A stretch of DNA of 64,000 bases from Escherichia coli. GTDB taxonomy: Bacteria; Pseudomonadota; Gammaproteobacteria; Enterobacterales; Enterobacteriaceae. Under the pieces are notes generated by a model. The model ran no database searches, had not been told where the DNA came from, and was given only the letters and a program-made list of their open reading frames with translations. Below, in pieces: positions 3,258 through 58,075 of the stretch. The position numbers and the translations under genes are program-made. The stretch is taken from assembly GCF_051903065.1 (NCBI RefSeq), contig NZ_CP178438.1; one strand, given 5' to 3'. Within the stretch, counting starts at the first letter, position 1, and every line of letters begins with the position of its first letter.

Positions 3258-4692
3258 TTATTTTAAAGGTGACGGTGTCACGTTTTTCGGGATAGGGCAG
3301 TGGTACGGTTGCGTGTCCGTTACTTGCTGATGCTCTTGTTGGCATTCTTGCAATAGCCCTGAATCAAGGAAGAGATTGACTGTGGTTGCTGCCATAGTTT
3401 TCGCCGCCAGCAGCATTCCTTTATGAGCAATAGATGTTCGCCCCTGGCTAACCAGTTGCCACGTATGTAGGGGTGTACCGACGGCAAAACAGGGGCTGAA
3501 ACACTGGGCAACAGGCAGTTTCCAACTGACGTCGCCGACATCAGTCGATGCCGCAAGCACGTTATCGGTGGCGGCATATGGAGCGACTTCATTCGCCAGT
3601 ACCGTTTCACGATGACGTAGTGCAAAAACCTTGCCGTTTTCGCCACCGGTTGCGGCGATATTATTCAGACTGTTTTGCCGATCGTTGGAGGTGAGCGTAG
3701 CCTGAATTTGTTTCGCAAAAGCCAGTTCTTCGGAGTTCCATTCCGGGGTACCAAAATGGGATAGGGCCTGGTACATGGCATTTTCTAAGGTGCGATTCGG
3801 GAGATAACTGGAACAGGCTTTGTCGAAGCGGCATTCAACCTTGGTTTCGGTCATCAATGCCGCACCTTCGGCGATTTTGGCGACCCGATCATAAATATGC
3901 TGCACGTCGGTCATTTCGGGGGCGCGGATAAGATAAAGCACTTCTGCCTGCGCCTGGACCACGTTGGGCGAGATCCCGCCGCTATTTGTGATGGCATAGT
4001 GTACGCGCGCTTTTTCAATAATATGTTCGTTGAGGAAGTTGGTGCCAGTGGTCATCAACGTTACGGCATCAAGGGCGCTGCGTCCCAAATGAGGGGAATT
4101 CGCGGCATGTGCTGCGATCCCTTTAAAGCGCCATGATGCCTGAATGTTTGCCAGCGTGCGGGTATTGAACATACCGGCAAAGGCTTCCGGGTGCCAGGTG
4201 AGTGCCGCATCCACATCATCAAATACCCCCTCGCGAACCATGAACGTTTTACCCGAGCCGCCTTCTTCGCCAGGACAACCATAAAAGCGCACCGTGCCGC
4301 CTTGCCCATATTGTTCCAGCCATTTCTTGACGGCTATTGCAGCGGCAAAGGCGGCGGTTCCCAGCAAATTGTGTCCGCAACCGTGACCATTTTCACCGGG
4401 CGTCACGGATGTAGGTTGCGCGCAACCTGCTTGCTGACTTAAACCTGCCAGGGCGTCATATTCTCCCAGCAGGGCGATAACCGGTTTGCCTTGACCAAAC
4501 GAAGCAATAAAGGCATTTGGGATATTGCCTACGGGTGAAGCCTGCAGATTCCAGCGCCGAAGCCAGATGCTCCGCTGACCAGAACTCTTCAAAACGTGTT
4601 TCTGGATGATCCCAGATTTGATCGGCAATATCGGTATAACGTTGGCGATCGGCTTCAATCGCATCGTCGATAAAACGATAGATTTCCTGCAT
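3258..4692 (-). pseudogene. abgB: p-aminobenzoyl-glutamate hydrolase subunit B (M20 peptidase), reading frame disrupted near 4530-4540
   Basis: N-terminus MQEIYRFIDDAIEADRQRYTDIADQIWDHPETRFEEFWSAEHLASALESAGFT is in one frame (ORF 4456-4692); the rest from VGNIPNAFIASFGQGKPVIALLGEYD is in the adjacent frame (ORF 3258-4664); the switch is at a GGG run, plus-strand 4533-4535. Confidence 0.8.
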
Positions 4693-32770: not shown

Positions 32771-35076
32771 ATGTTTAAGCCCAGGATTTGCAGCTGGATA
32801 GGTTTACTTCCCCTGTTTATGCTGAGTCTTCCAGTACAGGCGGAACTTCGATGCGTTGCAAATGCAGTTGATATTGAACTTTTTTTTCTGCGGCTACCGC
32901 TGAAGATAAACAACAAGTTGAACAAGCTATCAACAGTAGCGTGAATCTTGTCCCCTTCGGTTTATCTGCATCGGACTGGAAAGTGCATCGTGGCGATTTA
33001 GTGATAGAAGGTAATATAGAGAGTAATCAAAAATTGATTGTTCTTGGCAATTTGACAGTCAAAGGTAATATTTCCACTTTCTCTCTTTCTAATCCATGGG
33101 TTATTCTCGGTAACGTGACGGCAACGAATATAGTTACGGATTCACCACTGTTAATTACCGGTTCGATAAATGCAAGTGGACTGGTATTTATCGACTCATA
33201 TTACGATAATCCGTCTACGATTAAGGGGAGTATTAATGCGCGTGGGATATTTATCAATGACATAATTGCACCTGTTGTTGCGTCTTCGACAAATAGTGAA
33301 TTCATGGTCCGTGCGAGTGACAAAAATGACACTGAAAATGTCAAAAAAGCGCTGATGATAATAAATCCTGATGCATATTATTGGGGTCTAATAAATGATG
33401 AAGATGCTCTGAAAGAAATTTTTAAGCGAAGCAATATTCGCATGGCAGGGAATGTCTGTAATCAGATGAAAAAAGAAGCGCTGTTTCGCCCTAAGCCTTC
33501 TCCTGAGTTAGTGCAGGAATTGCAAATGCTGGATGAAGGCAACGTTGCTGCATTTGAAGGACGAGATATTGCGACATTTGATCTTGCCATAATGCGAACT
33601 CTCCCAAGGCTTAAAGGAATTTCAGCTAACCTACGCAAACAACTTATTAATAGCAATGATGGACAAACGATTGCAAGTATGGCGAGATATATGCCTGACA
33701 ATGAGATTCTGGAGTTGACCGATCAGCAATTGGGTTACCAGCCTGTTGTTCTGGGGTTGCTCGACCGTGAACCGCTCTCTGTCGAAATAATGACGCGAAT
33801 GAGTCATCTACCTGATGGTGTCGGTCCGTTGAATCTTGCGCTACGTGAAAATCTTCCTCTGGATATCGTCATGACTCTGGCGAAAAGAGATTGGGATATG
33901 ATCATTCAGGAGCTTTATAAAGATGCGTGGTTATTGCCCGAATCCATTATTGATGGCTATATCCGCAGTGATGATTCCTCTATTCGTCAGGTCGGTGCTG
34001 GAGGACAACTCACCTACAATCAGGCAATGCAGTTGGCGAACGATTCATCAAACGATGTTGTCACAAGCTTAGCGTTAAAGCTGGCAGAGATGAAACACCA
34101 TGGTCAATTGTTGCGGATGACGCCACAAGAGAGTGACAAAATAGCAGTATATTTATACCAAAAATTCGAGAATGACGATGATCTAATAGGTGCGTTATTT
34201 TTAGCGTTGCCAGATAACTTACAGTTTAATTTTGTTAAAAGGATGGAGAAAAAATCCCCTGCCTATTTTTGCTGTCGGGATATGCAGATAATTCACTCTG
34301 ACGCTGCTTTACAACGGTTATTGACACGTTTCAACGATCCTGAGGGGTGGAGTAATCTGGCGAAAAATCAGTATCTGAGCACGTCGATGAAACAAAAAAT
34401 TTGGCAACGTGCTTTATCGCATCGGAAAAATAATCCCAAAGCAGATTCAGATGCATATGAAACCAGCGCTGATATGATTTTGTCTGAGCTTATCAGCTAC
34501 GGTGAAGTTGATGACCAGATGCTATTAAATGCCACCTCTCTGATACGTTCGGACGACTGGGACTTTTTAGAGAGAGCATTAATTAGTTGGGATAATTTAC
34601 CCGCTGTTGTTCTCAAGGAATTACAGCAAAACACGCTACGCAATGATATTTGGGCGAAGTTTTTTCTGAGGCAGGAAAACAGTTCCCGTGCGCAGGTTAA
34701 CGAAGCGTTACGTGTTTATTATGCACTAGACCCCGATGCGTTAGCACAACTGGATGTACTGGCAAAACAACCGGATCGTATATGGTGGAGTACACTGGCG
34801 AAAAGCAATCTCACATTTTTCAAGTTCGGCGCACTTAACAACCGCCACACACCGCCTGCGGTACTGGCGGCAGAAATTGATCCCGAGTGGTGGATTGTGG
34901 CGATGAATAATCTCCGTTTTCCAGTTGATGTATTAAAGGCGAGGCTGAAACGTGATCCTTTGCTGGCGTTAGAGCTTGTTAACCCTGAACTGGATTTAGT
35001 TCGCCAGCTGGCGCTTAACGGTAAGACGCGCGCAATACGGGAACAAGCGATGAGAAAACTTGATGAGTTGTATTGA
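32771..35076 (+). pseudogene. ydbD: secreted protein of unknown function, N-terminus out of frame with the body (shift inside a T8 run at 32880-32887)
   Basis: ATG at 32771 encodes signal peptide MFKPRICSWIGLLPLFMLSLPVQA...VDIELFF and stops at TGA 32942-32944; the 711-aa body (ORF 32941-35076) continues backwards in the adjacent frame as SAATAEDKQQVEQAINSSVNLVPF to the T run; 57 + 711 codons would be one 768-aa protein. Confidence 0.8.
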
Positions 35077-35851: not shown

Positions 35852-36747
35852 TGCTGGAAAAATCTCTGGCAACACTTTTCGCGTTGTTAATTTTAGCAAC
35901 GCTGATAAACCGTTTTCGGGTATGGCGGTTACCGGAGAGAAAAGAGGATGAAGTTACATTACGTATTCGTACCTGGTGGGGTATCGTCATTTGTTTTTCA
36001 CTGGTGATTTCAGGTCCACGCTGGATGACGTTGACGTTTTTTGCGCTGATAAGTTTTCTGGCATTGAAAGAATATTGTACGCTTATATCCGTACATTTTC
36101 CGCGTTGGTTATATTGGGTTATTCCTCTTAACTATTTGCTTATCGGTTTTAATTGCTTTGAGCTGTTTCTGTTATTTATACCTTTGGCTGGGGTTCTGAT
36201 ATTAACCACCTGGCGAGTTTTAGTAGGTGATACCTCCGGTTTTCTGCATACCGTGAGCGCCATTTTTTGGGGCTGGATAATGACCGTTTTCGCCTTGAGT
36301 CATGCCGCCTGGTTATTAATGTTGCCAACCACAAATACCCAGGGCGGGGCGTTACTGGTGTTATTTATTTTGGCGTTAACAGAGTCAAACGATATTGCAC
36401 AGTATTTATGGGGGAAATCCTGCGGCAGAAGAAAAGTGGTCCCCAAAGTCAGCCCGGGAAAAACGCTGGAAGGTCTGGTGGGGGGCGTAATCACCACCAT
36501 GATTGCGTCACTGATTATTGGGCCGTTGCTGACACCGCTAAATACATTACAGGCATTATTAGCGGGTTTGTTAATTGGTATTAGTGGTTTTTGCGGCGAT
36601 GTAGTGATGTCAGCCATCAAACGAGATATTGGTGTTAAAGATAGCGGAAAACTATTACCAGGACATGGCGGACTCCTTGACAGGATTGACTCATTAATTT
36701 TCACCGCTCCGGTATTTTTTTATTTTATTCGCTACTGCTGTTACTGA
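35851..36747 (+). CDS. ynbB: CdsA-like phosphatidate cytidylyltransferase family membrane protein
   Basis: 298-aa polytopic ORF with C-terminal KRDIGVKDSGKLLPGHGGLLDRIDS typical of the CdsA family. Confidence 0.85.
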   Translation: MLEKSLATLFALLILATLINRFRVWRLPERKEDEVTLRIRTWWGIVICFSLVISGPRWMTLTFFALISFLALKEYCTLISVHFPRWLYWVIPLNYLLIGFNCFELFLLFIPLAGVLILTTWRVLVGDTSGFLHTVSAIFWGWIMTVFALSHAAWLLMLPTTNTQGGALLVLFILALTESNDIAQYLWGKSCGRRKVVPKVSPGKTLEGLVGGVITTMIASLIIGPLLTPLNTLQALLAGLLIGISGFCGDVVMSAIKRDIGVKDSGKLLPGHGGLLDRIDSLIFTAPVFFYFIRYCCY

Positions 36748-57103: not shown

Positions 57104-58075
57104 CCCTGCCAGCGGCGTTCGCGTAATGCGCTCCTCGCCGTTAATGACTTTTGGACCACGGACATGAACCGTGTCGCCATCAAAGGCTTCAACGACGGCG
57201 TGGTCGGTTAACTCCACATGGTTTTCAATTATCACCGCACCTGTAATACGGCTCTTACCTTGTATTACAACGTGCTCGTCGAGCAGAATCGGTCCGCCAC
57301 GTACCACGGCATTTCCGCCAATCAAGACATGATGTTTTAACACACAATTACCTTCCACAATGGCATATTCCGCCACCTGCGAACTGTAATGAATCGTCGG
57401 AATGGCATCTTCTTCTATGCCAGCTTTCACCTGCGCGTGACCGTAGACTTTAGCGCAATCGCATAGCCAGACGTTGTTCTCTTCATTACCTTCAATACTG
57501 GCAAAATCAAAAACTTCGGCGCGATGTTCAATAAAAGCATACCGGATGACGGCATCGCCATAAATTTGTGCCTGGTGGACAATACGCGAGGCGCTAACCC
57601 TTGCGCGATCATAAATTTGTAGCAGGAGTTGATGGTCAGGCGTTAAGCCTTGTGCTGCGACGATCATAGAATGTTGATTAATTAAGGCGTAACCAAATAT
57701 TCTACATTGCCCGCAAACCAGTGAGTCATGAATGGTGACACTGTCACTTATATATGCACCCTGGCTGATTTCACTATTATCGATCCAGACATTATCCGTT
57801 GCGTAAACCTCTCCCCACAGCACGCTGGTGCCGGTGATGCGCGTATTACCGGAAATCACCGCTCCGCCGAACGCAATAGCATTCTGGTCGTAAATCCAGC
57901 AATTTCCTTCCTGTGCTAACACCGTTTCGCGATCGATCCAGCCGCCAGCGGTTCCTGCTATCACATCGTTAAAATCGCTAATGGCGATAATCTGCCGTAA
58001 TAACACATTTTTTTTAGTGCCATCTTCCTGATAACTAAAGGCTCGCTGTTCTTCACTTAGACGATATTTGCGCAT
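57095..58075 (-). CDS. ydcK: hexapeptide-repeat (left-handed beta-helix) protein
   Basis: 326-aa ORF with repeated isoleucine-patch hexapeptide units; 3' end overlaps rimL by 9 nt on the opposite strand. Confidence 0.88.

Follow-up and report, generated by a model that had tools for sequence, protein, structure and literature searches.

A lineage-wide ydbD frameshift at the edge of a short poly-T tract in Escherichia coli

Does the broken ydbD gene of this Escherichia coli chromosome reflect a sequencing error, the 'off' state of a phase-variable gene, or an inherited pseudogene? The question arises from a run of T residues near the 5' end of the gene, at which the reading frame changes by one base. 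A frameshift at a poly-T tract is ordinary in kind, and public annotation already flags ydbD as a pseudogene; the origin, inheritance and reversibility of this frameshift are considered here.

Organization of the ydbD locus

Within the window, that is, the whole 64,000-nucleotide stretch of DNA analyzed in this study, the frameshifted ydbD allele occupies 2,306 nucleotides on the plus strand (32771 to 35076), the strand on which all features described below are located. It has the gene order pdxI-ydbD-ynbA and is 99.7% identical to the intact ydbD of JNEC-KY204, from which it differs at 7 nucleotides; the intact gene measures 2,307 nucleotides, or 768 codons, both in JNEC-KY204 and in K-12. 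Translation from the ATG at 32771 yields MFKPRICSWIGLLPLFMLSLPVQA followed by ELRCVANAVDIELFFLRLPLKINNKLNKLSTVA, an open reading frame (ORF) of 57 codons closed by a TGA at 32942-32944 (32771 to 32944), and this exact 57-residue peptide is also present in public assemblies. Its first segment (32771 to 32842) reads as a predicted Sec signal peptide, judged directly from the sequence by its basic n-region, hydrophobic core and small residues at positions -3 and -1, with cleavage expected after VQA. The homopolymer consists of exactly eight T's at 32880-32887 (gatattgaac-tttttttt-ct, 32870-32889). It spans the codons Phe38-Phe39 plus flanking T's, within codons 37-40 of 768, and its length sets the reading frame.

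The adjacent frame, which holds the body of the gene, is open from 32879 to the TAA at 35074-35076 and reads ...TFFSAATAEDKQQVEQ... Its first start-like codon is the GTG at 32941, from which a mechanically defined ORF of 711 codons extends (32941 to 35076), and this GTG overlaps the TGA stop as GTGA (32941-32944). The C-terminal DUF2773 domain (PF10971) was located at 34831 to 35073, corresponding to residues 631-711 of the 711-residue ORF (hmmscan, E=4.6e-44); the same model matches the intact YdbD homologue with E=9.9e-46, and a scan of YdbD against NCBIfam returned no matching model. Domain content, the pdxI-ydbD-ynbA position and near-identity all identify the gene as the DUF2773/PF10971-containing 'bactofilin' ydbD. 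When one base is inserted at the tract, a stop-free ORF of 768 residues results. The reading frames thus agree with the original prediction that a T8 run splits ydbD by a one-base frame change, with a 57-codon, signal-peptide-bearing ORF on one side and, in the adjacent frame, a body that remains open back to the T run.

Homopolymer runs of at least eight nucleotides occur five times in the window, compared with 6.2 +/- 2.6 expected under a first-order Markov model, so the T8 run by itself is not unusual. Coding sequence contains only two of these runs, one in ydbD and the other in ydcK. The latter, an A8 tract, is unfit as a control, as the truncated peptides predicted from it are just 32-37 residues long and specific to a single haplotype.

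Nature of the lesion

The closest intact alleles read GAA-CCT-TTT-TTT-TCT across the tract, that is, CC followed by T8, and this intact context with identical flanks was found in 265 genomes. In the alignment, the intact alleles show GAACCTTTTTTTTCTG where the window has GAAC-TTTTTTTTCTG, which places the missing base at the junction between the single C and the T tract (32879 to 32880), where intact relatives carry CC. T8 is present in both the window and its intact relatives, so the tract has kept its length, and the lesion is most simply explained by the deletion of a single C where CC meets T8. That this allele group carries T8 instead of T7 results from a synonymous change of CCA to CCT. 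Relative to intact orthologues, a single indel truncates the product to 57 amino acids, and ydbD is therefore split by a genuine one-base frame change at the edge of the T tract. Inactivation through a change in tract length, as phase variation would entail, is not what the alignment displays, since T8 in the window equals T8 in the closest intact alleles; this point becomes ambiguous only under a two-step origin through T9.

We also considered T9 as the normal allele, and this possibility was ruled out: C+T9 occurs in 0 of 5,426 complete genomes, and intact genes carry TCA, CAA or CCA followed by T7, or CCT followed by T7 (equivalent to CC+T8). CC+T7 was likewise found in none of the complete genomes. 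The expectation that nine T's would give one 768-residue protein is arithmetically right, and a strain with T9 does exist, but the natural intact state is CC+T8. Similarly, the proposed comparison with other E. coli ydbD alleles confirms a frame change at the tract, but the tract is not shorter than in the closest intact relatives.

Inheritance of the frameshift

The exact 78-nucleotide allele is carried by three of the 3,861 complete genomes that contain the segment, namely 23CRST027 and 23CRST031 from Ecuador and ECNB21-M121 from China. In the 24.9 kb lying downstream of ydbD, approximately 100% identity to the window is limited to these three complete genomes, and the next genome reaches 98.9%. 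C+T8 was also found in eight further contigs from independent assemblies of the same lineage, and the lineage's 711-residue ydbD body is represented by about 79 contigs. The frameshift is common to these related genomes, and their lineage is set apart from all others; the frameshift in the window is real and has spread by descent through this E. coli lineage.

The RefSeq annotation is in line with this result. PGAP labels ydbD 'frameshifted' in both 23CRST027 (AC6IZ1_RS08595, NZ_AP045789.1) and ECNB21-M121 (LA372_RS12040, NZ_CP083585.1), with sequence and coordinates identical to ours and the same single-frameshift call; it is silent on the position of the lesion, its contact with the homopolymer, the T9 revertant and the T6 and T8 alleles found elsewhere.

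An artefact of sequencing or assembly, in which a deletion error adjacent to the homopolymer conceals a truly intact gene, is extremely unlikely. Single-base deletions at homopolymers are frequent among long-read errors, and among the public contigs that show a tract frameshift, some are plainly full of errors and have multiple frameshifts in ydbD and adjacent genes. The present allele, however, was seen by two laboratories on two continents (three complete genomes) and in eight independent assemblies, and it is limited to one phylogenetic lineage, while the 265 genomes sharing the CC+T8 context show no such 'error'. Moreover, no gene other than ydbD is labelled 'frameshifted' across the 64 kb of 23CRST027, as would hardly be expected of a noisy assembly. 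The assembly error that the original prediction had named as one possible outcome is thus contradicted by the recurrence of the same allele.

A T9 strain and the order of events

One strain of the lineage, SRR21096675 (also GCA_025528095.1), carries C+T9 according to one read set; it has a 768-residue ORF, and a 7.2-kb comparison with the window shows 2 SNPs. Judging from its sequence, the gain from T8 to T9 restores the full ORF and compensates for the lost C, at the price of Pro37Leu at a residue that is naturally Ser, Pro or Gln. The T9 contig ends in an IS1 terminus at the exact ynbB site that is occupied by IS1 in ECNB21-M121, a T8 strain, and ynbB is intact in the other members of the lineage. 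Since the T9 strain shares this derived IS1 with one T8 strain and the other members are T8, T9 is nested within the lineage and is more likely secondary.

The reverse order is possible but, in our estimation, rather unlikely: a C to T change (CCT to CTT) would first have produced an in-frame T9 allele with Pro37Leu, and a slip from T9 to T8 would then have broken the frame. Consistent with this order, the C+T9 allele exists in exactly the background of this lineage, the Pro37 (CC) version of the lineage's protein is absent from a collection of 15 billion proteins, and slippage at T9 is far faster than point mutation, so that the second step would have been ready to occur. Against it, two steps are needed instead of one, the sole T9 strain shares the derived ynbB IS1 with a T8 strain while every other member is T8, and no T9 is found in 5,426 complete genomes. 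Slippage greatly outpaces point mutation, so counting events provides only weak parsimony in deciding between direct loss of C and the route through T9.

Tract-length variation across E. coli

Tract states were taken from consensus assemblies. T7 is the state of most E. coli ydbD genes; T6 was found on four or more sequence backgrounds, and T8 on several. On the TCA haplotype, T6, T7 and T8 were counted 13, 910 and 0 times, respectively; the CAA haplotype comprises 65 T6 and 310 T7 alleles, and T6 was found twice on the CCA haplotype. At the protein level, truncated peptides expected from a -1 shift occur in at least 1,000 contigs of the Gln37 type and 406 of the Ser37 type, and those from a +1 shift in 25 and 4 contigs, respectively; Gln37-type T8 alleles were confirmed directly at the DNA level. 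T6, T7 and T8 are all found in ydbD bodies 0 SNPs apart, and together with the co-existence of T8 and T9 within the lineage this documents changes in both directions. Among complete genomes with ydbD, 83 of about 3,900 (about 2%) carry a tract frameshift. The 13 K-12-type T6 genomes differ by just 0-2 SNPs over a 5.3-kb region, too few to tell whether they form a single clade. The +1 peptide of the CC+T9 type is absent from the large protein collection, and a metagenome scan for C+T8 or C+T9 gave zero matches. Taken together, these data make the T tract look like a hot spot of repeated slippage, by which ydbD is sometimes repaired, and not like a proven on/off switch.

Two other 57-residue peptides, P0005 on the CCA/CCT background and P0047 on the MG1655 background, were set aside as additional slippage events, as their contigs are short or contain several other frameshifts in ydbD and neighbouring genes, which makes read error likely.

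State of the gene body

No extra stop or indel was detected in the ydbD body, and the pseudogene is therefore still rescuable. Of the outcomes named in the original prediction, uniform T8 with decay of the body is borne out in its first part, as T8 was read in 11 of 11 lineage members examined at the DNA level, the T9 strain aside, and not in its second. Three amino acid replacements distinguish the allele. V79I (G to A at 33004) and P715L (C to T at 34913) are specific to the lineage, the 19 intact alleles having V and P at these residues, and P623L (C to T at 34637), at a residue invariant in the 19 intact alleles, is specific to a sub-lineage, being absent from ECNB21-M121 and the T9 strain. 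The lineage's changes in ydbD amount to 3 non-synonymous and 4 synonymous, too few for a test of decay, and the 2 SNPs observed against 0.6 expected from the flanks do not differ significantly, given low power.

In the species as a whole, ydbD is absent from 950 of 5,426 genomes, and in some of the remaining genomes it is interrupted by IS1 or IS5 or has other frameshifts. In K-12, YdbD makes up less than 1 ppm of protein, and the gene appears in a list of weakly expressed genes that a transposon screen found to be important for fitness (PMC5053530). This listing sits uneasily with the description of ydbD as dispensable.

Interpretation of the frameshift

We consider it probable that ydbD is a young, lineage-fixed frameshift pseudogene at a homopolymer hot spot of replication slippage, for which low-rate reversion is possible. 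With one base missing at CC|T8, translation from the ATG at 32771 would produce the signal peptide and 33 further residues before stopping at the TGA at 32942, leaving the other 711 codons, and with them the DUF2773 domain, out of frame and otherwise intact. The original lesion may have been a direct loss of C, either by misincorporation of T and realignment on the template A run or by slippage in CC, or else a C to T change followed by T9 to T8. Later changes would reflect ordinary Streisinger slippage, probably at about 1e-8 to 1e-6 per generation by analogy with Listeria A6/A7 tracts, acting on what would be a weakly expressed, dispensable envelope protein. Such a locus would be a mutational hot spot with occasional reversion, as distinct from a demonstrated regulated or high-frequency switch.

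True slipped-strand phase variation, meaning a selected, reversible on/off switch of a secreted or periplasmic protein of which the window represents the 'off' phase, appears unlikely. It would account for a tract 13 codons past the signal-peptide cleavage site, for -1 and +1 alleles that both occur on several haplotypes, for the frame-restoring change from T8 to T9 within a shallow lineage and for a body that is still intact; T6, T7 and T8 in otherwise identical bodies, together with a natural revertant, are also the pattern of a contingency locus. Nevertheless, the tract is short (T7 or T8) and exists because of two TTT Phe codons, and the lesion in the window is not a change in tract length. 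Within the lineage, 11 of 11 members read at the DNA level have T8 and about 79 contigs contain the frameshifted body, compared with one T9 strain. Tract frameshifts affect only about 2% of complete genomes with ydbD (83 of about 3,900), a share that is not unusual for pseudogene alleles of an E. coli gene, and ydbD is also lost through deletion and IS insertion. Although 5' A/T tracts have been described as reversible inactivation devices by Orsi et al. (PMC2831843), rates for 6-7-nucleotide tracts in Listeria were 4e-8 to 6e-7 (PMC2831843), and E. coli is mismatch-repair proficient. The stronger proposal that the poly-T is a contingency switch, in which T6/T7/T8 (and T9) toggle a sigma-E-induced, signal-peptide-bearing bactofilin-like protein at an above-background rate and under selection, with the lineage reversibly 'off' and switched on via T9, strikes us as quite improbable. 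The original prediction's description of the poly-T as a classic phase-variation arrangement therefore holds to the extent that the tract recurrently takes the states T6, T7 and T8 elsewhere, but the allele is fixed here, reversion is rare and no high-frequency switching is visible.

Expression could also be rescued without mutation, by -1 ribosomal frameshifting or transcriptional slippage on U8, or as a signal-less 711-residue protein through reinitiation at the GTG, and this we judge very unlikely. The sequence does contain a slippery heptamer, T TTT TTT (U UUU UUU), on which a -1 slip leads into TCT GCG GCT in the body frame, and the GTGA overlap at 32941-32944 joins stop and start. However, the downstream RNA fold is not significant (z = -0.47), inspection of the sequence upstream of the tract and of the GTG revealed no Shine-Dalgarno-like element, and the two-frame arrangement is not conserved, about 98% of ydbD genes being in frame. 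Of the features of programmed frameshifting, only the slippery motif is thus present, with neither a stimulatory element nor conservation. Appreciable slippage of E. coli RNA polymerase, furthermore, requires a run of roughly 9 nucleotides, and the run here has eight.

Comparison with known systems

In Listeria monocytogenes, the 5' poly(A) tract of inlA is in frame as A7 and leads to truncation after 8 amino acids as A6, with measured rates of 5.5e-7 for A6 to A7 and 3.9e-8 for A7 to A6 (Orsi et al. 2010, PMC2831843). Like ydbD, inlA encodes an exported protein and carries a short A/T homopolymer towards its 5' end, and it has at least two independent frameshift origins, in- and out-of-frame alleles that differ at the tract alone, and reversion by a single-base insertion. 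Unlike ydbD in the window, where a neighbouring C is missing and the tract length is the same, the inlA lesion is a change in tract length; inlA also has a role in virulence, whereas YdbD has no assigned function.

Classical contingency loci include the poly-G/C tracts in surface genes of Neisseria, Haemophilus and Campylobacter and the heptanucleotide repeats of neuO in E. coli K1. Their tracts are longer or multi-copy, vary at about 1e-2 to 1e-5 per generation and give mixed cultures. Like ydbD, they encode envelope or secreted proteins and carry a repeat in the 5' part of the coding sequence, and they switch on and off by frameshift; the ydbD tract, in contrast, is T7-T8 and was read from consensus assemblies, and its population pattern fits an ordinary slippage rate. 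A further parallel, as outlined in a preprint, is the 7C homopolymer of Mycobacterium tuberculosis glpK, in which reversible frameshifts are associated with drug tolerance (bioRxiv 10.1101/717272). As presented there, glpK shares with ydbD a 7-nucleotide coding homopolymer and frameshift inactivation that is reversed by a further slip; it differs in that its host lacks canonical mismatch repair and that a phenotype was shown for the glpK variants, none being known for ydbD.

In practice, the ydbD of the window should be treated as an inherited pseudogene and not as a target for polishing, and its lesion recorded as a one-base loss where CC and T8 meet. Should switching be fast or selected, ydbD would represent a rare simple-repeat phase-variable locus on the E. 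coli chromosome and would offer a handle on YdbD function. With ydbD, an enterobacterium proficient in mismatch repair offers a well-populated natural case of a short homopolymer in coding sequence that is a hot spot for frameshifts in both directions, and the example includes what appears to be a natural intragenic suppressor, the T8 to T9 gain that offsets the lost C.

Position of the lesion in ydbD

In the ydbD gene of the window, the segment at 32870-32893 (gatattgaac-tttttttt-ctgcgg) contains eight T's (T8) at 32880-32887. The N-terminal ORF, identified by translation, runs on the plus strand from ATG 32771 to TGA 32942-32944 and comprises 57 codons, of which residues 1-24 (MFKPRICSWIGLLPLFMLSLPVQA) resemble a Sec signal peptide. 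The body lies in the adjacent frame, which stays open from 32879 as far as the stop codon at 35074-35076 and where the protein goes on as ...FFSAATAEDKQQVEQ..., and the ORF obtained mechanically in this frame on the plus strand, from the first start-like codon (GTG 32941), encodes 711 aa. Sequence and translations thus confirm the T8 tract, the 57-codon ORF and the 711-codon body of the original prediction; its interpretation holds in part. Its further statement, that nine T's would give a 768-aa protein, is arithmetically right, one added base at the tract restoring an ORF of the length of intact ydbD. T9 is nevertheless not the normal allele, because neither C+T9 nor CC+T7 (the base or bases 5' of the tract plus its length) was found among complete genomes and the nearest intact alleles are CC+T8.

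This position was defined by aligning the ydbD 5' end with intact alleles around codon 37, at the tract edge. The intact alleles of K-12 (GAA TCA TTT TTT TCT) and of O145 and others (GAA CCA TTT TTT TCT) carry T7, and the closest intact alleles (JNEC-KY204, O157; GAA CCT TTT TTT TCT) carry CC+T8, with identical flanks in 265 genomes. The frameshifted window allele reads GAA C-T TTT TTT T CT (C+T8), and its tract is as long as that of these nearest intact alleles, both being T8. The alignment points to the loss of one C from the CC dinucleotide adjoining the tract as the single-step difference. The ydbD pseudogene is already flagged in RefSeq, and what is mildly new is the exact lesion, together with the hot-spot pattern across the species and the T9 allele as a natural suppressor, both described below.

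The tract itself is statistically ordinary, as the window holds five homopolymer runs of at least 8 nt against 6.2 ± 2.6 expected, two of the five within coding sequence. The sole other coding run of this length is the A8 (coding strand) at 58008-58015, covering codons 21-23 at the 5' end of the intact minus-strand gene ydcK, which could serve as a slippage-frequency control. At 32941-32944 (GTGA) the TGA of the truncated ORF overlaps the GTG that opens the 711-codon body; no SD-like sequence lies upstream of GTG 32941, and the 711-aa product is routinely predicted by gene callers in public assemblies.

An allele shared by descent

Over 64 kb, the window matches 23CRST027 (NZ_AP045789.1) except for 4 mismatches and a single 11-nt gap. 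The exact 78-nt allele is present in 3 of the 3,861 complete genomes having the segment, namely 23CRST027 and 23CRST031 (human faeces, Ecuador) and ECNB21-M121 (meat, China), and the same three genomes only show ~100% identity to the window over the 24.9 kb downstream of ydbD, the next reaching 98.9%. These genomes form a distinct lineage. PGAP labels ydbD a 'frameshifted' pseudogene in 23CRST027 and ECNB21-M121, and across the 64 kb, 23CRST027 has no other gene so labelled. Since ~16 SNPs over ~60 kb (outside one cluster), two IS1 insertions and an 11-nt indel separate the window from ECNB21-M121, the two do not represent one clone. The 711-aa body of the lineage was found in 57 contigs in a Pro623 form and in 22 contigs in the Leu623 form of the window. 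An assembly artefact, envisaged in the original prediction, is effectively excluded, as C+T8 recurs in three complete genomes and in all eight lineage contigs examined, from independent assemblies.

The other outcome envisaged there, further decay of the body, was not observed either: the window ydbD body contains no additional stop or indel. The lineage stem carries two non-synonymous (V79I, P715L) and three synonymous changes in ydbD, followed in the crown by P623L in the sub-lineage of the window and one synonymous change in ECNB21. V79, P715 and P623 are invariant in 19 intact alleles; SNP density is not significantly raised, and the changes are too few to show relaxed constraint.

The only family match of YdbD is the C-terminal DUF2773 domain (PF10971), with no match among NCBIfam models. 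YdbD appears in a list of proteins induced when sigma-E is overproduced, with the description 'induced by methylglyoxal' (PMC2731931). In K-12 its level is <1 ppm of protein, but a fitness screen singled it out (PMC5053530). The gene is absent in ~950 of 5,426 genomes and partial in ~640 more, and further genomes have it disrupted by an IS1 or IS5 insertion or damaged at other sites.

Tract-length variation across E. coli

Exact alleles were counted in complete genomes by codon-37 haplotype. With TCA (Ser), T6, T7 and T8 occur in 13, 910 and 0 genomes; with CAA (Gln), T6 and T7 occur in 65 and 310; CCA (Pro) with T6 occurs in 2. The 'frameshifted' annotation is found in ETEC4073 and in all seven TCA+T6 genomes fetched in full, and at least 83 of ~3,900 ydbD-carrying genomes (~2%), including the three C+T8 genomes, have a tract frameshift. 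In a larger assembly collection, the 57-aa peptide resulting from a -1 shift occurs in at least 1,000 contigs of Gln37 type (2,446 index blocks) and 406 of Ser37 type, and the 44-aa peptide of a +1 shift in 25 and 4 contigs, respectively; the DNA shows CAA+T6 and CAA+T8 for the alleles of Gln37 type. Among public-assembly contigs (L-numbers), Gln37 bodies with 0 SNPs over 2.3 kb carry T6 (L029), T7 (L064) or T8 (L057, L059); a second Gln37 body, at a distance of 17-18 SNPs, is found with T6 (L023 group) and with T8 (L058), and a third with T8 (L061). Leaving out clearly error-laden public contigs with tract frameshifts, a conservative count gives no fewer than five independent shifts by -1 and no fewer than four by +1; the ydbD poly-T tract is a slippage hot spot.

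Secondary decay of the body is seen in Gln37-type alleles: members of the common CAA+T6 lineage (L024, L029) include 653-aa or 107+590-aa fragments, and the T8 allele L059 has a 662-aa body. The lineage of the window is free of such decay.

A T9 strain within the lineage

When the protein that T9 would encode in the ECNB21 background was looked up by exact sequence, it matched HCP4508661.1. Its contig (Logan SRR21096675_357 and GCA_025528095.1 DAJMDR010000116.1, both from one sample) carries GAAC+T9 and a full 768-aa ORF with Pro37Leu, and differs from the window by 2 SNPs only over 7.2 kb. It terminates in an IS1 end at the ynbB position (window 36681-36688) where the T8 strain ECNB21-M121 has an IS1 with an 8-bp target duplication. 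ynbB is intact in the window and in the seven other lineage contigs reaching it, the eighth (L046) stopping short of the gene. Because this IS1, used as a shared derived marker, is common to both, the T9 strain has a T8 strain as its sister and sits within the T8 strains, and T9 is most simply read as a secondary +1 slip compensating the lost C. Natural alleles have Ser, Pro or Gln at residue 37, so Leu37 is plausibly tolerated.

Mechanism

We consider it likely that the window carries a frameshift fixed in its lineage and located at a homopolymer hot spot, an event of a known kind in which ordinary replication slippage would repeatedly inactivate, and now and then restore, a dispensable ydbD. 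A possible alternative history, CCT to CTT followed by T9 to T8, agrees with the lack of any record, by exact-sequence look-up, of a Pro37 (CC) version of the lineage protein, while the nesting of the T9 strain among T8 strains favors a secondary T9; both histories require one or more T8/T9 slips in the lineage.

Classical slipped-strand phase variation, suggested in the original prediction, is in our judgment improbable: the position of the tract, the T9 revertant and the changes of length in both directions on identical backgrounds all fit it, but the tract is short, the window lesion is a lost C rather than a change in tract length, the lineage is T8 save for one strain, and tract frameshifts reach only ~2% across the species. 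Arithmetically, the frameshifted gene could be rescued by slippage on U8, whether ribosomal or transcriptional, or by reinitiation at the GTG of the GTGA overlap (32941-32944), but such rescue has no stimulatory element to support it (fold z = -0.47). The closest described analogue of the ydbD tract is the 5' A7/A6 tract of Listeria inlA, with rates of 5.5e-7 for A6 to A7 and 3.9e-8 for A7 to A6, and at least two independent origins (PMC2831843).

Other differences among lineage members

In abgB (minus strand, ~3258-4692), the window lacks at position 4534 an 11-nt stretch (TTGCGGGTAAC), bordered by a short ACG repeat, that is present in 23CRST027, 23CRST031 and ECNB21-M121; this shifts the frame beyond residue ~53, and a stop follows near codon 79. 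This loss marks the window as a further isolate of the lineage, apart from the three genomes. An IS1 at 28739-29506, missing from ECNB21-M121 and the T9 strain, splits the large autotransporter gene ydbA into 24986-28168 and 29534-31627, and within the passenger domain of ydbA, at 25283-25642, there are internal tandem-like repeats, seen as self-matches at offsets of ~30, 57 and 90 nt with ~90% identity. The T9 contig starts, near window position 28155, with 24 nt missing from the window and ECNB21-M121, a putative IS903-like terminus. Finally, 13 SNPs and a 4-nt indel separate the window from ECNB21-M121 at 61049-62369, in the IS200/IS605 tnpA-insQ (tnpB) element, where tnpA is a pseudogene in both, one genome having an internal stop and the other a frameshift; this cluster points to gene conversion between IS copies or to a different copy of the element.
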